From assembly GCF_016026235.1 (NCBI RefSeq), contig NZ_CP065613.1: a stretch of DNA of 64,000 nt, one strand, 5' to 3'. Source of the DNA: Escherichia coli. GTDB lineage: Bacteria; Pseudomonadota; Gammaproteobacteria; Enterobacterales; Enterobacteriaceae. This document shows, one piece after another, positions 2,606 through 34,625 of the stretch; the first letter of the stretch is position 1; each line of letters starts with the position of its first letter. The notes beneath the pieces are model-generated. The model was given only the letters and a program-made list of their open reading frames with translations. It did not search any database and was not told the origin of the DNA. The position numbers were made by a program, and so were the translations under genes.

Positions 2606-3859
2606 ATGACATTCTCCCTTTTTGGTGACAAATTTACCCGCCACTCCGGCATTACGCTGCTGATGGAAGATCTGAACGACGGTTTACGCACGCCTGGCGC
2701 GATTATGCTCGGCGGCGGTAATCCGGCGCAGATCCCGGAAATGCAGGACTACTTCCAGACGCTACTGACCGACATGCTGGAAAGTGGCAAAGCGACTGAT
2801 GCACTGTGCAATTACGACGGTCCACAGGGGAAAACGGAGCTACTCACACTGCTTGCCGGAATGCTGCGCGAGAAGTTGGGTTGGGATATCGAAGCACAGA
2901 ATATTGCACTAACAAACGGCAGCCAGAGCGCGTTTTTCTACTTATTTAATCTGTTTGCCGGACGCCGTGCCGATGGTCGGGTCAAAAAAGTGCTGTTCCC
3001 GCTGGCACCGGAATACATTGGCTACGCTGACGCCGGACTGGAAGAAGATCTGTTTGTCTCTGCGCGTCCGAATATTGAACTGCTGCCGGAAGGCCAGTTT
3101 AAATACCACGTCGATTTTGAGCATCTGCATATTGGCGAAGAAACCGGGATGATTTGCGTCTCCCGGCCGACGAATCCAACAGGCAATGTGATTACTGACG
3201 AAGAGTTGCTGAAGCTTGACGCGCTGGCGAATCAACACGGCATTCCGCTGGTGATTGATAACGCTTATGGCGTCCCGTTCCCGGGTATCATCTTCAGTGA
3301 AGCGCGCCCGCTATGGAATCCGAATATCGTGCTGTGCATGAGTCTTTCCAAGCTGGGGCTGCCTGGCTCCCGCTGCGGCATTATCATCGCCAATGAAAAA
3401 ATCATCACTGCCATCACCAATATGAACGGCATTATCAGCCTGGCACCTGGCGGTATTGGTCCGGCGATGATGTGTGAAATGATTAAGCGTAACGATCTGC
3501 TGCGCCTGTCTGAAACAGTCATCAAACCGTTTTACTACCAGCGTGTTCAGGAAACTATCGCCATCATTCGCCGCTATTTACCGGAAGATCGCTGCCTAAT
3601 TCATAAACCAGAAGGAGCCATTTTCCTCTGGCTATGGTTTAAGGATTTGCCCATTACGACCGAGCAACTCTACCAGCGCCTGAAAGCACGCGGCGTGCTG
3701 ATGGTGCCGGGGCACAACTTCTTCCCGGGACTGGATAAACCGTGGCCGCATACGCATCAATGTATGCGCATGAACTACGTACCAGAGCCGGAGAAAATTG
3801 AGGCGGGGGTGAAGATTCTGGCGGAAGAGATAGAAAGAGCCTGGGCTGAAAGTCACTAA
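2606..3859 (+). CDS. avtA: Valine-pyruvate aminotransferase (alanine-valine transaminase)
   Basis: The ORF-track ORF 2501..3859 has an unsupported 5' extension; the internal ATG at 2606 gives a 417-aa product starting MTFSLFGDKF, matching the AvtA N-terminus. Class I/II aminotransferase with the SLSKLG PLP-lysine motif. Confidence 0.9.
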   Translation: MTFSLFGDKFTRHSGITLLMEDLNDGLRTPGAIMLGGGNPAQIPEMQDYFQTLLTDMLESGKATDALCNYDGPQGKTELLTLLAGMLREKLGWDIEAQNIALTNGSQSAFFYLFNLFAGRRADGRVKKVLFPLAPEYIGYADAGLEEDLFVSARPNIELLPEGQFKYHVDFEHLHIGEETGMICVSRPTNPTGNVITDEELLKLDALANQHGIPLVIDNAYGVPFPGIIFSEARPLWNPNIVLCMSLSKLGLPGSRCGIIIANEKIITAITNMNGIISLAPGGIGPAMMCEMIKRNDLLRLSETVIKPFYYQRVQETIAIIRRYLPEDRCLIHKPEGAIFLWLWFKDLPITTEQLYQRLKARGVLMVPGHNFFPGLDKPWPHTHQCMRMNYVPEPEKIEAGVKILAEEIERAWAESH

Positions 3860-26307: not shown

Positions 26308-26591
26308 GATGATATCTCCGTATTACCCCGCGCCGGGAATGCGCGGCCGCCAATTTTAGTTTAGGTTCCCGGTAAAGATGACATTAAGGAAAACGTGCTG
26401 AATCCTCAATAATCATCCGCTTCTGTTTATTATCTTTTTTCTATAGATTTCTTAATTAATCAATAAATTGCGTAGTTTTTAAGCATATTAATGATTACGT
26501 TGCGGAACTATTGCAATGTCATCAGTTGTGAACAAAGCACCTGGTCGCGCATACTAGGGGCTATAAATTTATCTTTATCAGAAGCCATCAC

Positions 26592-26954
26592 ATGAAAGAA
26601 GTCGAAAAAAACGAAATCAAACGTCTCAGCGATCGTCTGGACGCCATCCGCCACCAGCAGGCCGATCTGTCGCTGGTTGAAGCCGCAGACAAATATGCCG
26701 AGCTGGAAAAAGAGAAAGCCACGCTGGAAGCAGAAATTGCCCGCCTGCGTGAAGTTCACAGCCAGAAACTGAGTAAAGAAGCACAGAAGCTGATGAAGAT
26801 GCCGTTTCAGCGCGCAATTACCAAAAAAGAGCAGGCTGATATGGGCAAACTGAAGAAAAGTGTTCGCGGACTGGTGGTTGTGCACCCAATGACCGCGCTG
26901 GGCCGCGAAATGGGCCTGGAAGAGATGACTGGATTCTCTAAGACTGCGTTTTAA
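26592..26954 (+). CDS. yibL: Conserved protein of unknown function (DUF2810-like), coiled-coil
   Basis: 120-aa ORF with a charged coiled-coil region; position matches yibL. Confidence 0.7.
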
Positions 26955-27018
26955 GCCCCTCAGACGATTGGTACGATCGTATCAACCCGCATCTGGCTTG
27001 CGTTAGCTGGTCAATGCG

Positions 27019-27028
27019 GGGACTCCCC
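27019..27028. repeat. Target-site duplication, left copy (GGGACTCCCC)
   Basis: Directly repeated at 28323..28332, immediately outside the IS terminal inverted repeats; a 9-bp TSD is expected for IS10-group elements, and the exact boundary is ambiguous by 1 bp. Confidence 0.7.
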
Positions 27029-28322
27029 CTGAGGGATCCCCAGAAAATTTAGTAAACCATTATCATATTGGTATACCGTTGCTGTAGAACTTTCAGCCCT
27101 GCGTCAAGTGACAGTGTGTTTAGTATGAGTGGAGAATGTCGAATCACATTCTCCGCCAGTTTTAATAACGAGATGACTCGCCTGTGCTTCACTGTATTTG
27201 CCTGATATTTATGATGTATCCCTTTGTTTTCCAGGCTGAAACCGCTTAACCACATAATGATACTGGCTAATGTTGCGATCAGACTCAATACCGTGACCCG
27301 CCCGGATGAATGACTGGCACCAAACCGTAGTCCAAATCCCCAGCGAGGATTTTTTTCATCCCTGAAATTTTGCTCAATTTGCATTCTACGGCTGTATAAT
27401 TTCATTACCTGTTTTGGCGAGAACTCAGTACTGTTTGTGAAAATAAACCATGGTGATTTCCCGGCAGTACGAGCTTTAGCCGTCACCGATGGTCTGGTTG
27501 CTCTTTCCTTCGAGCGTTTAAATCTACGACCTTTAGGCTTACTTTTATAAAGATAAAAATGCCCTTCATGTTGTGCATTTTTATCTCGACCCAGCAGGCC
27601 TTCACCTAAATAAATTGCTGTCGTTGATGCTTTTGTGCCTGAGTCCGACACCTTTTCCCAGCCATTACCAACATTGTAATAATGATTGCCCAGTACCCGG
27701 CAAATATAGGTCCAGCCACGGGAGCGGAGCTGTTGGAACCATCGCCCCTGAAAACCGGCATCTGTAATAACAATGACATCAGTCCCGGGGGAAAAGCACT
27801 CAGCAAGCGATTCCAGAAAACGCTCATGTACATCTGCATTCGCTGTCTGTGATGATGGAACGACACAACTCATCAACGGTAAAGAACGCCCGTCACATGC
27901 CAGGCTTGCCCGCAAAAGCTGAAAACGAGAGGCATGATAAGCACTCCAGTCAATGAGTATCACAACACGAGACATTCCCCGCGTAATCTTTTGGGTAATT
28001 CGCTGAAAAATGGTGGAAACCTCATTTTGCAAATGTCGATTCCCCAACAGTCGATCCACCCGCTTTATTTTGTTTTTAACTGATGCCGTACCGGTTAAAT
28101 GACGCCCGATACTGGTAAGTGTGAGGGAAGCGCCATTTATTACAGCATTAGTTGCGTCAATCAGTGATTTTTGACGGTAAAGATGCAAAGGGGCCAGTAT
28201 GTTGTTAAGGAAATTTTGGCATAATGAACGTGCAGGCATAGTGGTGATCTCCTTGAAATTGTTAGCACAATCAATTAGATCACATCTCACTATGCCTGTC
28301 TTGTTTTCTGGGGATTCCTCAG
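27029..28322 (-). mobile_element. IS10-like insertion sequence (IS4 family), apparently intact
   Basis: About 1.29 kb bounded by imperfect terminal inverted repeats (left CTGAGGGATCCCCAGAAAA…, right …TTTTCTGGGGATTCCTCAG) resembling IS10 ends (CTGATGAATCCCC), with a single transposase ORF and flanking direct repeats. Confidence 0.85.
27049..28239 (-). CDS. IS4-family (IS10-group) DDE transposase
   Basis: Protein aligns from MPARSLCQNF… with the IS10 transposase as I recall it (shared LTLT…GR…NKIKR(V/I)DRLLGNRHL, YSRRMQIEQNFRDEK, HKYQANTVKHRRVIS blocks). The start was trimmed to the Met preceded by a GGAG RBS. Confidence 0.85.
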   Translation of the reverse strand: MPARSLCQNFLNNILAPLHLYRQKSLIDATNAVINGASLTLTSIGRHLTGTASVKNKIKRVDRLLGNRHLQNEVSTIFQRITQKITRGMSRVVILIDWSAYHASRFQLLRASLACDGRSLPLMSCVVPSSQTANADVHERFLESLAECFSPGTDVIVITDAGFQGRWFQQLRSRGWTYICRVLGNHYYNVGNGWEKVSDSGTKASTTAIYLGEGLLGRDKNAQHEGHFYLYKSKPKGRRFKRSKERATRPSVTAKARTAGKSPWFIFTNSTEFSPKQVMKLYSRRMQIEQNFRDEKNPRWGFGLRFGASHSSGRVTVLSLIATLASIIMWLSGFSLENKGIHHKYQANTVKHRRVISLLKLAENVIRHSPLILNTLSLDAGLKVLQQRYTNMIMVY

Positions 28323-28332
28323 GGGACTCCCC
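28323..28332. repeat. Target-site duplication, right copy (GGGACTCCCC)
   Basis: See the left copy at 27019..27028. Confidence 0.7.
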
Positions 28333-28801
28333 TGTCTGCTCGCCTAATTACTGAACAATCCACTCCCTCTACATCAATTTACCGCTGGTTGATATTCTGA
28401 AAATGTATTTTCACCGAAATAGCAACCTATAAACAATAAAAATATATAGAAGATATCATTTGTTAATTAACAAGCATTTACGTCTCTTTTTTTCGGATTT
28501 AATTGTGAAATTTTAATCATCATATTCATAAAATCAATTATCCGTAAAAATTTTTCCAGATATGGTTTCTTCCATATTTGACATTTATTAATAATCATCA
28601 TTAGAATCCACGAAAAATAATATATTCATACAAACACAGACATATTTTGAAACGAATGATACATTTTTATGATGAATGCTTAAAACAATATTTAATCGAC
28701 ACCCATCACTGTCATTAATGTAAAGCAACATAGATCACCAATAATACAATGGACAACTCTACCGGCATTGATCGCTGGTCGGAGGCAATAAGGATTTTTA
28801 C

Positions 28802-29485
28802 ATGAACTTGAAGAAGATTTTTTTCAGTGCTGTCACTGTTTCAGTTCTCTGCACATTAACGGGATGTGACTACATTGAAGAAGGCAAGCCAGAAAGTAGT
28901 TTACTGAAACAACAAGAAGAACATAACAATAAAATTGAGCTAATTGAAAAACAACAAGCACAGCTAAAGAGTCAACTGGAAACTATTCAAAAACAACAAA
29001 CTGGCATAATAACCAGTACAAAGACTTTAACTCACGTAATTAAATCCGTTAAAGAACAACAAAACACTTTTATTTTTACCGAGTTTAATCCGGCAAAAAC
29101 GAAGTATTTCATCCTGAACAATGGTTCGGTGGCTTTAGCGGGCCGAGTGTTATCTATTGACGCAACAGAGAATGGCAGTGTTATTCATATTTCACTGGTC
29201 AACTTATTAAGTATACCAATCTCAAACATTGGTTTTAATGCGACATGGGGTGGTGAAAAACCTGTCGATGCCAAAGAGTTTGCCCGGTGGCAACAATTAC
29301 TTTTCAACACATCAATGAAATCCACATTGAAATTATTACCAGGTCAATGGCAAGACATTAATTTGACACTGAAGGGTGTATCGCCGAATAACCTGGGATA
29401 TCTGAAGTTAGCCATCAATATGGAGAATATTCAGTTTGACAACCTTCCCTCTGCTGAAAATCGGCAGAAAAGAAGCAAAAAATAA
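28802..29485 (+). CDS. SadB-like inner-membrane lipoprotein (putative trimeric autotransporter biogenesis helper)
   Basis: 227-aa ORF with a lipoprotein signal peptide and lipobox (…VLCTLTGC), followed by a Q/E/K-rich coiled coil. It sits immediately upstream of the adhesin gene, as sadB does with sadA in Salmonella. The gene is AT-rich. Confidence 0.6.
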   Translation: MNLKKIFFSAVTVSVLCTLTGCDYIEEGKPESSLLKQQEEHNNKIELIEKQQAQLKSQLETIQKQQTGIITSTKTLTHVIKSVKEQQNTFIFTEFNPAKTKYFILNNGSVALAGRVLSIDATENGSVIHISLVNLLSIPISNIGFNATWGGEKPVDAKEFARWQQLLFNTSMKSTLKLLPGQWQDINLTLKGVSPNNLGYLKLAINMENIQFDNLPSAENRQKRSKK

Positions 29486-29528: not shown

Positions 29529-32500
29529 ATGAACAAAATATTTAAAGTTATCTGGAACCCTGCGACAGGGAATTATACTGTTACCAGCGAAACGGCAAAA
29601 AGCCGTGGTAAGAAATCTGGTCGCAGTAAGCTGTTAATTTCTGCCCTGGTCGCGGGTGGAATGTTTTCGTCGTTTGGGGCATTGGCGAATGCCGGGAATG
29701 ACAACGGTCAGGGTGTTGATTACGGTAGTGGATCAGCTGGCGACGGCTGGGTTGCTATAGGCAAAGGGGCGAAAGCAAATACTTTTATGAACACCAGTGG
29801 TTCCAGTACTGCTGTGGGTTATGAAGCTATAGCTGAAGGCCAATATAGCTCTGCCATCGGTTCAAAAACCCATGCGATTGGTGGTGCATCAATGGCGTTT
29901 GGGGTTAGTGCAATATCAGAAGGCGATAGAAGTATAGCACTGGGTGCCTCTTCGTATTCATTGGGCCAATACTCAATGGCCCTCGGCCGTTATTCAAAAG
30001 CATTGGGTAAATTGTCTATTGCTATGGGGGACTCTTCCAAAGCGGAAGGAGCAAACGCCATTGCGCTGGGAAATGCCACTAAAGCTACTGAGATTATGAG
30101 TATTGCTCTTGGCAACACCGCCAATGCGTCAAAAGCGTATTCAATGGCGCTGGGAGCAAGTAGCGTCGCATCTGAAGAAAACGCGATTGCCCTGGGGCGT
30201 AGCAGTGCAGCTAATGGTACTGACAGCCTCGCATTAGGCAGACTATCCGTCGCCAGCGCAGCAAACGCCATTACGATAGGTGCTGAGAGCAAAGCCGCTG
30301 AAAATGCGACGGCCGTTGGTACCAAAGCGGAGGCCAATGGACTTAATAGTATCGCGTTGGGCTCTGGGGGTATTGCAGATGCCGATAACACGATTGCTCT
30401 GGGCAATCAAAGCCTGGCAGTAGCTGCTGGTGCAATTGCCATCGGTCAGGGGAATAAAGCTGACGGCGCAAATGCTATCGCGCTGGGTAATGGTAGTGTT
30501 ACAGGTGGCGCAAATGCTATTGCTCTTGGACAAGGTAGTTATGCCGGTTTAGAAAATGGCATTGCAATTGGTGGTCAAGCCAGTGCTCAAGGGACAAATT
30601 CCGTTGCTCTGGGTGCGGGTTCTGTAGCGACTGAAGATAATTCCGTCTCTGTGGGTAACACAACAGATCAGCGAAAAATTGTCAATATGGCAGCAGGTGA
30701 TATCAGCACTAGCAGTACTGATGCCATAAATGGATCACAGCTTTATGCTATCAGTAAGTCAGTAGCGGACCGTCTTGGTGGGGGGGCTACCGTCAATGCG
30801 CAAGGTGTCGTTACTGCCCCGAATTACAGACTGAAAAATGGTATTTATGGCAATGTTGGCGATGCTTTAGCGGATCTAAACAATAACACGATACAATGGG
30901 ACTCCGTTAAAAAGGGATATAGTGCGGCACATGGTACAGATGCCACCAGCACCATCACCAACGTTAAAGCCGGCACTATTTCTGCTACCAGTACGGATGC
31001 GGTTAACGGTTCCCAACTGAAAGCTACCAATGACGATGTCGAAGCCAACACCGCCAATATCGCTACTAATACCAGCAACATTGCCACGAATACGGCAAGT
31101 ATTGCCACCAACACCACCAATATCACCAACCTGACGAATTCCGTTGGTGACCTTAAGGATGATGCCCTGCTGTGGAATGATGCTAAAAATGCATTCAGTG
31201 CAGCTCACGACCAGGATACCACCAGCAAAATCACCAACGTTAAAGATGGCGACCTGACGGCTGGCAGCACCGATGCCGTTAATGGCTCTCAGCTGAAAAC
31301 CACCAACGATGCCGTGGCGACGAATACCACCAATATCGCCACTAACACTTCCAATATTGCCACTAACACTTCCAACATCTCTACCCTGACTGAGACGGTG
31401 ACTAATCTTGGTGAGGATGCGCTGAAATGGGATAAGGACAGTGGTGTCTTCACGGCAGCACACGGCACCGAGGCCACCAGCAAAATCACCAACGTTAAAG
31501 ATGCCGACCTGACGGCTGACAGCACCGATGCCGTTAACGGCTCTCAGCTGAAAACCACCAACGATGCTGTGGCGACGAATACCACCAATATCGCCAATAA
31601 CACCTCCAATATTGCCACTAACACCACCAACATCTCTAACCTGACTGAGACGGTGACTAACCTTGGTGAAGATGCGCTGAAATGGGATAAGGACAATGGT
31701 GTATTCACGGCAGCTCATGGCAACAACGCCACCAGCAAAATCACCAACGTTAAAGATGGCGACCTGACGGCTGGCAGCACCGATGCCGTTAACGGCTCTC
31801 AGCTGAAGACCACCAACGATGCCGTGGCGACGAATACCACCAATATTGCCACTAACACCACCAACATCTCTACCCTGACTGAGACGGTGACTAATCTTGG
31901 TGAGGATGCGCTGAAATGGGATAAGGACAATGGTGTATTCACGGCAGCTCATGGCAACAACACCGCCAGCAAAATCACCAATATCCTGGACGGCACAGTC
32001 ACTGCAACCAGTTCCGATGCCATTAACGGCAGCCAGCTTTATGACTTAAGCAGCAATATCGCCAGCTACTTCGGCGGCAACGCTTCTGTGAATACTGACG
32101 GTGTGTTTACCGGTCCAACCTACAAAATCGGTGAAACAAATTATTATAACGTCGGCGATGCACTGGCTGCGATTAACTCCTCATTTAGCACGTCTCTCGG
32201 CGATGCCCTGCTTTGGGACGCTTCCGTAGATAAATTTAGTGCCAAACACGGTACTAATGGTGACGCAAGCGTGATCACTGATGTCGCAAACGGGGATGTT
32301 TCAAGCACAAGCTCTGATGCTGTGAACGGCTCGCAACTCTATACCACCAATAAGTACGTCGTAGATGCGCTGGGTGGTGGTGCCGAAGTCAATGCTGACG
32401 GCAGCATCAGTGCGCCGACTTACACTATCGCAAACGCAGATTACGATAATGTCGGTGATGCCCTGAATGCTATCGATACCACTCTTGATGACGCTCTGCT

Positions 32501-34625
32501 CTGGGATGCAGACGCCGGTGAAAATGGTGCATTTAGCGCCGCTCACGGAAAAGATAAAACTGCCAGTGTAATCACTAACGTCGCTAACGGTGCAATCTCT
32601 GCTGCCAGCAGCGACGCGATTAACGGCTCACAACTCTATACCACCAATAAGTACATCGCTGATGCGCTGGGTGGTGACGCAGAAGTCAACGCTGACGGCA
32701 CCATCACCGCACCGACTTACACCATTGCGAACGCCGAGTACAACAACGTCGGTGACGCCCTGGATGCGCTTGATGATAACGCCCTGCTGTGGGATGAGAC
32801 TGCCAACGGCGGTGCTGGAGCCTACAATGCCAGCCATGACGGTAAAGCCAGCATCATCACTAATGTCGCTAATGGCAGTATTAGTGAGGACAGCACCGAT
32901 GCAGTGAATGGTTCTCAGTTGAATGCGACGAATTTGATGATTGAGCAGAACAGCCAAATCATCAATCAGCTTGCTGGTAACACCGACACAACCTATATCG
33001 AAGAAAATGGCGCTGGTATCAACTACGTTCGTACTAACGACAACGGTTTAGCCTTTAACGATGCAAGCGCCTCTGGTGTCGGCGCTACAGCTGTAGGTTA
33101 TAACGCTGTCGCGTCTGGTGCCAGCAGCGTAGCCATTGGTCAGAACAGCAGCAGCACCGTTGATACCGGTATTGCGCTGGGTAGCAGCTCCGTTTCCAGC
33201 CGTGTGATTGCCAAAGGTTCTCGTGATACCAGCGTGTCAGAAGAAGGTGTTGTGATTGGTTATGACACCACGGATGGCGAACTGCTCGGTGCATTGTCGA
33301 TTGGTGATGATGGCAAGTACCGTCAAATTATCAACGTAGCCGATGGTTCCGAAGCCCATGACGCCGTTACGGTTCGCCAGTTGCAGAACGCTATTGGAGC
33401 GGTCGCCACTACGCCAACCAAGTACTATCACGCCAACTCAACGGCAGAAGACTCACTGGCCGTTGGTGAAGACTCGCTGGCAATGGGTGCGAAAACTGTC
33501 GTTAATGGTAATGCAGGTATTGGTATCGGTTTGAACACTCTGGTTCTGGCTGATGCGATCAACGGTATTGCTATCGGCAGTAACGCACGCGCAAACCATG
33601 CAAACAGTATTGCAATGGGTAACGGTTCTCAGACCACCCGTGGTGCACAGACTGGCTACACCGCCTACAACATGGACGCACCGCAGAACTCTGTAGGTGA
33701 GTTTTCTGTCGGTAGTGAAGACGGTCAACGCCAGATCACCAACGTCGCAGCTGGTTCAGCGGATACCGATGCGGTTAACGTGGGTCAGTTGAAAGTCACT
33801 GATGAGCGCGTAGCGCAAAATACCCAGAGCATTACTAACCTGAACAATCAGGTCACTAATCTGGATACTCGCGTTACTAATATCGAAAACGGTATTGGCG
33901 ATATCGTGACCACCGGTAGCACCAAGTACTTCAAGACCAACACCGATGGCGTAGATGCCAACGCCCAGGGTAAAGATAGCGTTGCGATTGGTTCTGGTTC
34001 CATTGCTGCCGCTGACAACAGCGTCGCTCTGGGTACAGGCTCCGTGGCCAACGAAGAAAACACGATCTCTGTGGGTTCTTCTACCAACCAGCGCCGTATC
34101 ACCAACGTAGCTGCCGGTGTTAATGCCACCGATGCGGTTAACGTGTCGCAGCTGAAATCTTCTGAAGCAGGCGGCGTTCGCTACGACACCAAAGCGGATG
34201 GCTCTATCGACTACAGCAACATCACTCTCGGTGGTGGCAACGGAGGTACGACTCGCATCAGCAACGTTTCCGCAGGTGTGAACAACAACGACGCGGTGAA
34301 CTACGCGCAGTTGAAGCAAAGCGTGCAGGAAACAAAGCAATACACCGATCAGCGCATGGTTGAGATGGATAACAAACTGTCTAAAACTGAAAGCAAGTTG
34401 AGCGGTGGTATCGCTTCTGCAATGGCAATGACCGGTCTGCCGCAGGCTTACACTCCAGGTGCCAGCATGGCTTCTATTGGTGGCGGTACTTACAACGGTG
34501 AATCGGCAGTTGCTTTAGGTGTATCGATGGTGAGCGCCAATGGTCGTTGGGTCTACAAATTACAAGGTAGTACCAATAGCCAGGGTGAATACTCCGCCGC
34601 ACTCGGTGCCGGTATTCAGTGGTAA
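29529..34625 (+). CDS. ehaG: Trimeric autotransporter adhesin (YadA-like head, repetitive stalk, C-terminal YadA anchor); EhaG/UpaG-like
   Basis: 1698-aa ORF with the extended TAA signal peptide ([18 protein letters not shown]…), a head of repeated GxxAxAxG/SIALG motifs, neck motifs (NSVSVG…[10 protein letters not shown]…DAVNVSQL), DALLWD…FSAAHG stalk repeats and a C-terminal anchor ending …AALGAGIQW. The symbol is assigned by locus position between yibL and lldP; upaG is equally possible. Confidence 0.85.
30890..32040 (+). repeat. Tandem 240-252-bp coding repeats inside the adhesin stalk (about five near-identical copies)
   Basis: Unit …[17 protein letters not shown]…[42 protein letters not shown]… recurs with unit starts at about 30893, 31160, 31417, 31669 and 31909; degenerate copies continue to about 32800. 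Confidence 0.85.

Follow-up and report, generated by a model that had tools for sequence, protein, structure and literature searches.

The insertion sequence that lies between yibL and a lipoprotein-adhesin operon in this Escherichia coli genome is, with a probability of roughly 80%, an unremarkable copy of ISEc60, intact and probably recent, that keeps an IS10-style control layout, that occupies its site by virtue of target preference, and that has a small or nil effect on the adhesin genes. The evidence comes from the identity and ends of the element, from empty sites and independent insertions in other genomes, and from covariation among relatives of the element within the region where transposase expression would be controlled.

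Results

Identity and ends of the element

Within the window (that is, the whole 64,000-nucleotide stretch of DNA analysed here, to which all coordinates refer), positions 27029-28322, with the transposase on the minus strand, match, at 100% nucleotide identity across all 1,294 bp, at least 11 copies that bear the annotation 'IS4-like element ISEc60 family transposase'; identical copies carrying the NCBI PGAP annotation occur in E. coli strains CFSAN029787, RMDEC332/364, VL46 and FDAARGOS_943. Elements with more than 95% DNA identity are isoforms under the ISfinder rule, and the 100% identity found here is to PGAP-named copies rather than to the ISfinder reference. These copies share the inverted repeats, the 396-aa transposase, the 10-bp duplication and the type of target, location being the only difference. 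A search of the literature yielded nothing on ISEc60 beyond two incidental mentions.

The 19-bp terminal inverted repeats agree at 18 of 19 positions, with one mismatch. The transposase-distal repeat, CTGAGGGATCCCCAGAAAA (27029-27047, plus strand), has a GATC inside it at 27035-27038 and is comparable in this to the inside end of IS10, and its consensus across the clade is GGGGATCCCTCAG; the transposase-proximal repeat, CTGAGGAATCCCCAGAAAA (28304-28322, minus strand), has no GATC and is comparable to the IS10 outside end. Just two matches to the inverted-repeat sequence occur in the 64-kb window, as against 0 expected from shuffled sequences. Between the repeats lies an intact open reading frame of 396 aa (27049-28239, minus strand), which on the identical copies is annotated by PGAP as a CDS (WP_001111632.1) whose ATG corresponds to window position 28239 and which runs down to 27049.

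The IS4 family is defined by a DDE transposase with a Y-(2)-R-(3)-E-(6)-K signature (PMC2266710). In an alignment with IS10-type transposases, the catalytic residues D97, D160 and E289 are invariant, and Y282-R285-E289-K296 is located in YSRRMQIEQNFRDEK; the protein scores 360 bits against NCBIfam NF033591 (cut-off 152). With its DDE/YREK transposase, inverted repeats and target duplication of about 10 bp, the element belongs to IS4. The IS10 subgroup of this family is characterised by a size of 1,200-1,350 bp, 5'-CT ends and 9-bp direct repeats (PMC2266710, Table 1). The size of 1,294 bp and the ends CTGAGG...CCTCAG agree with this description, and in tblastn searches the transposase is closest to the IS10-type transposases (36% identity to IS10A/ISVsa5 along 93% of the length, with ISEc29 and ISXac1 lower); the direct repeats, however, are 10 bp rather than 9 bp both in ISEc60 (n = 7) and in its relatives (n = 16). 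The preliminary description, made from the letters alone, had recognised an intact IS10-like element with a full-length transposase, and to this a name can now be given: the sequence is that of an intact ISEc60 copy that looks competent for transposition.

The insertion site

An exact repeat, GGGGACTCCCC, flanks the element at 27018-27028 and 28322-28332. Since the IS ends with a G that is also the first base of this repeat, the true duplication is the 10-bp GGGACTCCCC, with its left copy at 27019-27028 and its right copy at 28323-28332; at empty sites it is present in single copy. Strains AHM8C212RI and UCPROB-002 have such sites: each carries one copy of GGGGACTCCCC, each is colinear with the window, and in each the interval from yibL to sadB is exactly 1,304 bp shorter. 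The single-copy target that the preliminary description proposed looking for in related genomes is thus confirmed, as is its view of a simple and probably recent insertion between direct repeats, there put at 9-10 bp. The occupied yibL-sadB site is absent from all 5,426 complete E. coli genomes in RefSeq; because of this, and of the 100% identity to other copies, the insertion is probably recent, and the sequence speaks for a simple event.

In seven independent ISEc60 insertions whose flanks match, the duplication is 10 bp long (apparently 11 bp in one of them, by chance) and reads GGGAnnnnCC after a GCG or CCG; a GGGGAnnnCCCC-type target is common to all of them. Sixteen relatives of ISEc60 likewise have 10-bp duplications and palindromic GC-rich targets. 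A 9-bp duplication accompanied by one base owned by the IS was considered and rejected: the base adjacent to the end differs among insertions (at loci L026 and L031, for example), and since it varies from site to site, it is part of the duplication rather than of the IS; the ISEc60 copies, in addition, give 10 bp consistently. The target in the present case is a GC-rich palindrome, gcGGGGACTCCCCtg, located 64-74 nt downstream of yibL, which ISEc60 would have entered by cut-and-paste, duplicating 10 bp. This site agrees with the strong preference that ISEc60 shows for its targets, so that selection on the adhesin genes is not needed as an explanation. Recurrent insertion into the yibL-sadB spacer, which would hint at such selection, was not found among 2,740 genomes: in 2,260 genomes nothing interrupts the intergenic region, and a second matching place for it occurs in just 6 of the 2,740, so that elsewhere the region is almost never hit by insertions.

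Genes on either side

Upstream lies yibL (26592-26954, plus strand), identified from its open reading frame and from the annotation of two syntenic loci; its stop at 26954 is 74 nt before the IS. Downstream, 479 untranslated nt separate the IS end at 28322 from the ATG at 28802 of an intact gene for a SadB/YajI-family lipoprotein (28802-29485, plus strand), which is followed by an intact gene for a YadA-like trimeric autotransporter adhesin of 1,698 aa (29529-34625, plus strand); both names follow the annotation of syntenic loci. The distances of 75 bp and about 480 bp given earlier thus hold to within a nucleotide, and the orientation was also read correctly: the transposase is on the minus strand and its start adjoins the right end of the IS, which faces the lipoprotein and adhesin genes on the plus strand.

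The spacer in front of these genes is AT-rich over most of its length (22% GC over 28400-28700). The best promoter-like site within it, TTGACA-18-TAGAAT (28578-28607, plus strand), has 11 of 12 matches to the consensus, this match being its sole basis, and is present at the empty site too; judging from the sequence, the lipoprotein-adhesin operon may have its native promoter here. A weak hairpin with a T-rich tail is found at 28557-28580.

On the yibL side, folding of the empty site gives a hairpin, CCCGCAT...ATGCGGG (26986-27020, plus strand; z -1.9), with no T run after it, and this hairpin stays whole to the left of the IS. A terminator scan called no intrinsic terminator at the empty site between yibL and position 3660 of syntenic locus L001, and the target itself, GGGG-ACT-CCCC, offers a 4-bp stem and no T run. 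The suggestion that the insertion splits the yibL terminator is therefore not supported: no terminator is detected at the empty site, and the nearby hairpin is uncut. Inside the IS, antisense to the 3' end of the transposase, a pattern scan flags a terminator-like hairpin (27129-27156, plus strand), which would stop transcripts entering from yibL.

Putative antisense control region at the transposase-proximal end

On the plus strand, the motif TGgCATAAT at 28217-28225 resembles an extended -10 element and is a putative pOUT analogue with a predicted start at about 28232. It has no good -35 element and is not flagged by a generic promoter scan. The motif is conserved in the clade: over 54 relatives, the counts for TGnCAWAnT are T 50, G 54, n, C 53, A 54, W, A 54, M and T 47, and its position measured from the start codon is 1 nt off that of IS10 pOUT. 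The TG is CG in the two closest diverged relatives (82-85% identity). Since the motif overlaps the conserved Cys7-Gln/His8 codons, part of this conservation is due to coding; there is also a bias at a synonymous site, the third base of codon 5 being A in 43 of 54 relatives, spanning 10 different amino acids, as against 4-15 of 54 for the comparison codons 3, 4, 8 and 9.

The predicted start is followed directly by a stem-loop (28232-28299, plus strand; dG -32 kcal/mol, z -5.3). Covariation was assessed over the same 54 relatives, which have 32-86% protein identity: 92% of the basal helix is paired, compensatory changes occur at 8 of 12 pairs, and none of 500 shuffles did as well. The hairpin spans the transposase start, and in loci L050 and L051, where ATG has changed to GTG, a change of CAT to CAC compensates for it. 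Wobble pairs do not single out the RNA of either strand (73 G-U versus 59 A-C cells, or 44 versus 59 without the terminal pair). We infer that, read on the plus strand, the stem-loop forms the body of an RNA-OUT-like antisense RNA; read on the minus strand, it spans the Shine-Dalgarno sequence and the ATG of the transposase, and is predicted to sequester both in transcripts that read in. Immediately beyond the stem is the T-rich tract TCTTGTTTTCT (28300-28310, plus strand), which is likely to mark the 3' end region of the antisense RNA; T-richness at this place is conserved (over the 54 relatives, a median of 6 T among the 10 nt that follow the stem), and hairpin and tract together are long and atypical for an intrinsic terminator.

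The complement of this tract carries AAGACA (28302-28297), which resembles a -35 element and which, together with TGaTCTAAT 17 nt away, makes up a putative pIN (28274-28302, minus strand) with a predicted RNA-IN start at about 28267. A GATC at 28281-28278 overlaps its -10 element, and AGATCA is nearly invariant in the alignment of relatives. Dam sites are thus found in the -10 element of pIN (28278-28281) and in the distal end (27035-27038), and none in the proximal inverted repeat. Taken together, these features suggest the following arrangement, in which both promoters, the antisense RNA and its termination are predicted. A weak, Dam-sensitive promoter of the pIN type would drive the transposase, and the hairpin would hide the ribosome-binding site and start codon from transcripts that read in from outside. 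An antisense RNA of about 70-75 nt is very probable; it would start from the extended -10 promoter inside codons 5-8 and would end at the T-rich tract, 12-22 nt before the IS end. An equivalent of pOUT, on which the preliminary description made its reading depend, is therefore plausible, given a conserved putative -10 element with a covarying stem-loop after it.

A scan with the Rfam RNA-OUT model (RF00240; gathering score 41 bits) gave no match at E ≤ 1 in 26400-29000 of the window, in another ISEc60 locus (L003) or in an ISSfl1 locus (L007). Because the scan was blank there while the positive controls, the IS10-type loci L009 and L010, scored 85.9 and 89.3 bits, the hairpin is not a member of RF00240.

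Comparison with IS10 and ISSfl1

IS10 (IS10R of Tn10; also IS10A and ISVsa5) belongs, as does ISEc60, to the IS10 subgroup of the IS4 family, and the likeness extends through most of the layout. Both have CTGA..ATCCCC termini, with a terminal GATC solely in the transposase-distal end; a pIN -10 of the form TGATC(A/T)AAT lying under a Dam site (TGaTCAAAT in the IS10-like locus L010); a hairpin over the transposase start; a preference for symmetric targets; and an antisense promoter (putative in ISEc60) whose start lies about 8 nt inside the CDS, with roughly 35 nt of overlap between RNA-IN and the antisense RNA-OUT. IS10's own RNA-OUT is 69 nt long, overlaps RNA-IN by 35 nt and has its end at nt 47; the pIN -10 there is overlapped by a Dam site (PMC5006887). 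In L010 the Rfam match to RNA-OUT covers 251-320, on the other strand from the transposase gene; the ATG of that gene is at 313, which puts the start of the RNA at +8 of the CDS; the start predicted for ISEc60 is at +7/+8. The two elements differ in that their transposases are only 36% identical; in that the duplication is 9 bp in IS10 (PMC2266710, Table 1) and 10 bp in ISEc60; in the target, which is GCTNAGC for the former and GGGGAnnnCCCC for the latter; in that RF00240 matches IS10-type loci at 86-89 bits and neither ISEc60 nor ISSfl1; and in the tract directly after the hairpin, which is more T-rich in ISEc60 than the equivalent IS10 tail. Moreover, pOUT activity and read-out have been demonstrated experimentally for IS10 alone, the pOUT of ISEc60 being a prediction.

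ISSfl1 and further relatives (in Pantoea, Photorhabdus, Xenorhabdus, Salmonella and Klebsiella), whose transposases are about 50-53% identical to that of ISEc60, share with it the ends, the pIN/GATC motif, the covarying hairpin, the antisense TGnCATAcT and the 10-bp duplications. In contrast to ISEc60 with its GGGGAnnnCCCC, they mostly target hairpins that resemble terminators and have tetraloops (CGC-TTCG-GCG or CCC-TGAC-GGG), and some of them have an extra segment of about 13 nt between the inverted repeat and the hairpin. As a separate observation, the ISEc60/ISSfl1 clade is characterised by 10-bp duplications, by GC-rich palindromic targets and by an antisense hairpin to which the Rfam RNA-OUT model finds no match.

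Discussion

The preliminary description raised the prospect that a pOUT equivalent of the IS activates or de-represses the adhesin genes. On this reading, transcription leaving the right end of the IS from a pOUT-like promoter would activate or de-silence the H-NS-silenced sadB-like/adhesin operon and so bring about adhesion or biofilm formation through the adhesin. This is improbable, even though several points speak for it: the orientation is correct; a pOUT-like -10 is conserved at the position equivalent to that in IS10; outward promoters of IS10 have been invoked for cat and acrEF (PMC4574204); IS10 pOUT activates adjacent genes although RNA-OUT 'terminates' inside IS10 (PMC2744996); and repression of UpaG-type adhesins by H-NS (PMC5012682) leaves room for activation. 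The known cases otsBA, acrEF and cat share the present geometry, an outward promoter directed at the gene downstream (PMC2744996, PMC4574204), but there the IS adjoins or lies inside the promoter or 5' UTR of its target, and its effect had been selected for and was measured; documented IS10 activations act from a few to tens of nt from the gene start, whereas the present ISEc60, known from sequence alone, is 479 nt away. The putative antisense promoter does point at the operon, and most of its transcripts would be expected to stop inside the IS, where TCTTGTTTTCT follows the antisense hairpin directly and is more T-rich than the IS10 tail. Any that escaped would have to cross a long untranslated stretch, mostly AT-rich and of the H-NS type, that has a hairpin with a T-rich tail and a promoter-like site of its own, before reaching the first gene. 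Target preference already explains the site, the region is not a recurrent insertion target among the 2,740 genomes, and neither reading of the sequence nor a promoter scan found a candidate at the junction for a hybrid promoter with its -35 in the IS end and its -10 in the flank. The proposed activation or de-repression is thus unsupported. The broader version of the idea, in which the clade's own Rfam-uncovered RNA-OUT-like system leaks, in this strain, into an H-NS-silenced adhesin operon some 500 bp away and switches it on in a strain-specific manner, is just as doubtful. Because most transcripts are expected to stop and because of the AT-rich 479-nt spacer, the net effect on the operon is most likely little or none.

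A main effect on yibL, through removal of its 3' end or terminator or through insulation of the adhesin operon from upstream transcription, seems slightly less probable again. The IS does sit close behind the yibL stop within a GC-rich palindrome, relatives of ISEc60 are typically found in terminator-like hairpins (e.g., AAAACCCGC-TTCG-GCGGGTTTT), and the hairpin at 27129-27156 is predicted now to end yibL transcripts. The empty site, however, has no detected intrinsic terminator, and its target has a stem of 4 bp without a T run; the fold at 26986-27020, though larger, falls short of significance and is left whole by the duplication; and nothing indicates that yibL transcripts normally reach the sadB-like gene. 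It is extremely improbable that the element is instead an artefact of assembly, belongs to a composite transposon or has decayed: tandem ISEc60-duplication-ISEc60 arrangements occur in other strains, but the window holds a single copy, with a perfect 10-bp duplication, colinear empty sites and complete identity to other intact copies. The preferred reading is thus that of an ordinary ISEc60 placed by its target preference, with probably little or no effect on the adhesin operon.

ISEc60 is already catalogued, and this copy adds a further polymorphic insertion that can serve as a strain marker and is otherwise of little moment; the orientation of an IS does not by itself demonstrate regulation. 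If the read-out were real, ISEc60 would join the known cases of H-NS-silenced surface adhesins activated by an IS. Of modest, specialist interest is that the IS10 control layout is retained in full by the ISEc60/ISSfl1 clade, with support from covariation, and is yet missed by the Rfam RNA-OUT model, and that the duplications of the clade are 10 bp rather than 9 bp. Its members are directed, moreover, to palindromes rich in GC and to the hairpins of terminators, and from this it can be predicted where they land and which 3' ends they disturb.

A known element in a new place

The element at 27029-28322 is the known insertion sequence ISEc60, in a new place. Among 5,426 complete E. coli genomes, megablast detects the full 1,294 bp at 100% identity in at least 11 copies, all annotated as 'IS4-like element ISEc60 family transposase'. 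Such copies occur in a few strains, namely CFSAN029787, RMDEC332/364, VL46 and FDAARGOS_943 (38 ISEc60 places by megablast in the last-named), one of which carries a plasmid named pINV. The transposase-distal terminal repeat, CTGAGGGATCCCCAGAAAA, lies at 27029-47 and the transposase-proximal repeat, the complement of CTGAGGAATCCCCAGAAAA, at 28304-22; allowing up to three mismatches, the 19-mer has just these two matches in the whole window and none in shuffled sequence.

A single long ORF fills the minus strand of the element; on the identical copies, the transposase coding sequence runs from an ATG equivalent to 28239 down to 27049 (396 aa). The protein scores 360 bits against NCBIfam NF033591 (IS4 family transposase; cut-off 152) and, aligned with IS10-type transposases, keeps D97, D160, E289 and the Y-R-E-K signature; by tblastn against plasmids it is 36% identical to IS10A/ISVsa5 and about 52% identical to ISSfl1 and to a Pantoea element. 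In size, CT ends and YREK, ISEc60 fits the IS10 subgroup as PMC2266710 defines it. Upstream, yibL ends at 26954, 74 nt before the element; downstream, a SadB/YajI-type (sadB-like) lipoprotein gene starts at 28802, 479 nt after it, followed by a YadA-like adhesin gene of 1,698 aa. The preliminary description of the feature agrees with the sequence and ORFs as re-read here: the feature is real, its coordinates and distances are right, and the account of the element is accurate.

Insertion and target choice

On both sides of the element stands GGGGACTCCCC, repeated exactly at 27018-28 and 28322-32; the first G of this repeat is also the element's last base. A query running from yibL through the IS to the sadB-like gene is covered to at least 80% in none of the 5,426 genomes; in many, both flanks match within a place that is shorter by exactly 1,304 bp, and in two of these alignment shows a single GGGGACTCCCC with the remainder colinear. 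The insertion is a simple one and probably recent. With the ends set as CTGAGG...CCTCAG, seven independent ISEc60 insertions have 10-bp duplications (GGTAAATCCC, GGGATCGCCC, GGGCAGTCCT, GGGATTTTCC(C), GGAACTGCCC, GGGATAACCA and GGGACTCCCC), as do 16 relatives from other genera. Because the base beside each end differs from site to site in these relatives, the alternative of a 9-bp duplication with one additional base from the IS is ruled out. In this respect ISEc60 departs from the IS10 subgroup, for which a 9-bp direct repeat is given (PMC2266710).

The seven insertions define the target pattern (G/C)CG-GGGAnnnnCC-C, a GC-rich near-palindrome. Specificity is strong, inasmuch as every independent insertion (window 27014-27032, and the copies L003 and L092-L096) duplicates GGGAnnnnCC after GCG or CCG; the element's own ends hold a target-like GGGATCCCC. 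Targets of the relatives are likewise palindromes, for example AACC[CGCTTCGGCG]GGGT and AAGC[CCCTGACGGG]GCTT, and many, bordered on both sides by A and T runs, resemble terminator hairpins. Certain ISSfl1-like relatives (L008, L041, L045, L049, L055, L057, L088 and L089) lie in the loops of terminator-like hairpins, such as AAAACCCGC-TTCG-GCGGGGT and AAGCCCC-TGAC-GGGGCTT, the 10-bp duplication being centred on the hairpin tip in each. From the sequences of these sites, a clade-wide preference for GC-rich palindromes is suggested. Since the window's target, gcGGGGACTCCCCtg, is a good fit to the ISEc60 pattern, target preference suffices to explain the location.

Elsewhere, ISEc60 copies occur in tandem, separated solely by one shared 10-bp sequence, GGTAAATCCC (L003, positions 1-320, and the right flanks of copies L090 and L091), in CFSAN029787 on the large plasmid, and in RMDEC332 and VL46 on the chromosome. 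The outer flanks of L090 and L091 are mismatched, which suggests rearrangement between copies.

The insertion had also been thought to split the yibL terminator region. At the empty site, a consensus scan of the stretch from yibL to the AT-rich spacer detects no terminator. A hairpin in the minimum-free-energy fold (CCCGCAT...ATGCGGG, 26986-27020) has no T run, and the z-score of the region is only -1.9. Moreover, because the duplication restores the GGG, this hairpin survives whole on the left side of the IS. The proposed disruption is therefore not borne out; hairpin targeting, as a general idea, does hold for the relatives of ISEc60. The IS itself carries, on the plus strand at 27129-27156, a hairpin (11-bp stem, then CAGTTTTAAT) that is antisense to the 3' end of the transposase gene and could halt transcription coming in from yibL.

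A probable IS10-type control layout

Read-in transcripts of IS10 are subject to 'fold-back inhibition', in which respect ISEc60 would match: on its minus strand, the arms of a long hairpin enclose the Shine-Dalgarno sequence and ATG of the transposase. On the plus strand (28232-28299) the same hairpin folds at -32 kcal/mol (z -5.3) and is similar in shape to that of an IS10-type element. In IS10, the antisense RNA-OUT is 69 nt long, pairs through its first 35 nt with the 5' end of the transposase mRNA and has its end at nt 47 of the element, and a Dam site overlaps the -10 of the transposase promoter, pIN (PMC5006887); the promoter of RNA-OUT, pOUT, reads outward and is able to activate adjacent genes (PMC2744996; PMC4574204).

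Counterparts can be read from the ISEc60 sequence. A putative pIN -10, TGaTCTAAT (minus strand, 28282-28274; AAGACA 17 nt upstream), parallels TGaTCAAAT of an IS10-like element, with GATC at the same place; it would place the start of the mRNA near 28267 and give a leader of about 28 nt, as against 27 nt in IS10. A putative pOUT -10, TGgCATAAT (plus strand, 28217-28225), is 1 nt off the position of the IS10 pOUT -10 relative to the ATG, and from it the antisense RNA would start at 28232-28233, that is, at the hairpin base, overlapping the mRNA by about 36 nt. In the inner helix of the hairpin, the two GATC sites that the transposase leader contains (28246-28249 and 28278-28281) are paired to one another (GUGAUCU/AGAUCAC).

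This layout was compared across relatives: scanning a single genome for each species yielded 79 loci (32-86% protein identity), and 54 distinct transposase-proximal ends were aligned. Across these ends the basal helix is 92% paired, with compensatory changes in 8 of 12 pairs, and none of 500 shuffles gave covariation as strong. In L050 (Phytobacter) and L051 (Pseudocitrobacter) the start codon itself is involved: it is GTG, and its hairpin partner has changed in compensation from CAT to CAC. Wobble counts in the hairpin do not discriminate between the strands among the 54 ends. The antisense motif is TGnCAWAMT, in which the fixed bases occur in 50 (T), 54 (G), 53 (C), 54 (A), 54 (A) and 47 (T) of the 54; in the two nearest diverged relatives, CG replaces its TG. 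Conserved Cys-Gln/His codons overlap this motif. Codon 5, whose third base corresponds to position -7 (T) in the antisense hexamer, has A there in 43 of the 54 ends, across ten amino acids; third-base A at codons 3, 4, 8 and 9 occurs in just 4-15. In L071 (Dryocola boscaweniae, 326-430) the transposase leader is lengthened by a 9-nt unit, CAACAAATT (transposase sense), present three times in tandem within the hairpin loop.

That ISEc60 might keep an equivalent of pOUT is thus favored by a layout and position as in IS10 and by a conserved motif. The case is limited by the overlap of the motif with conserved codons, by the CG of the two relatives and by the wobble counts. No -35 element is evident for the antisense promoter. 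The Rfam model RF00240 recovers RNA-OUT from two IS10-type loci at 86-89 bits, on the strand opposite the transposase gene and with its start at +8 of the coding sequence; it has no match in ISEc60 or ISSfl1, so that the hairpin is rejected as RNA-OUT by that model. On balance the analogy with IS10, including a probable outward antisense promoter toward the operon, is well founded, and an RNA-OUT-like antisense RNA in ISEc60 is likely (probability about 0.7). The covariation-backed hairpin family of the ISEc60/ISSfl1 clade (28232-28310) appears to be missing from Rfam.

Read-out toward the adhesin operon

A promoter facing the operon had raised the possibility that the IS activates or de-represses the adhesin genes. 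Orientation and the probable promoter agree with this; the context argues against activation. Directly after the antisense hairpin comes TCTTGTTTTCT, a T-rich tail that is conserved in the clade (median 6 T per 10 nt) and richer in T than its IS10-type counterpart. Given this tail, most antisense transcripts should, by prediction, end 12-22 nt inside the IS, the hairpin being too long for reliable computation of efficiency. Past the IS lie 479 untranslated nt in which GC falls to 22%, as is usual for DNA that H-NS binds. The IS lies at the margin of this AT-rich block, no part of which has been removed. UpaG-type adhesins are described as H-NS repressed in a passage of PMC5012682 that cites Totsika et al. 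2012.

Within the spacer, the strongest promoter-like site (TTGACA-18-TAGAAT, 11/12 matches, plus strand, 28578-28607) has its -35 overlapped by a weak plus-strand hairpin with a T-rich tail (28557-28580). The arrangement is identical at empty sites, and 28557-28607 may serve the lipoprotein-adhesin operon as its native promoter and control region. Documented activations by IS10 involve insertion inside or beside the target promoter (PMC2744996), whereas ISEc60 here is 479 nt from the first operon gene.

A query of the yibL 3' end plus spacer is matched in just 2,740 of the 5,426 genomes, about 480 of which match the yibL 3' end alone; an allele at least 99% identical to the window's spacer occurs in 10. 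The whole spacer is present without interruption in 2,260 genomes. A second matching place is found in at most 6 of the 2,740, which may reflect other insertions; the spacer, being almost always uninterrupted, gives no sign of recurrent selection for insertions there. Any regulatory consequence is speculative, and activation of the adhesin operon by ISEc60 read-out is improbable, the sequence context being on balance against it. Three by-products merit recording: duplications of 10 bp, insertion by preference into palindromes and hairpins, and a covarying RNA-OUT-like hairpin that the Rfam model misses.
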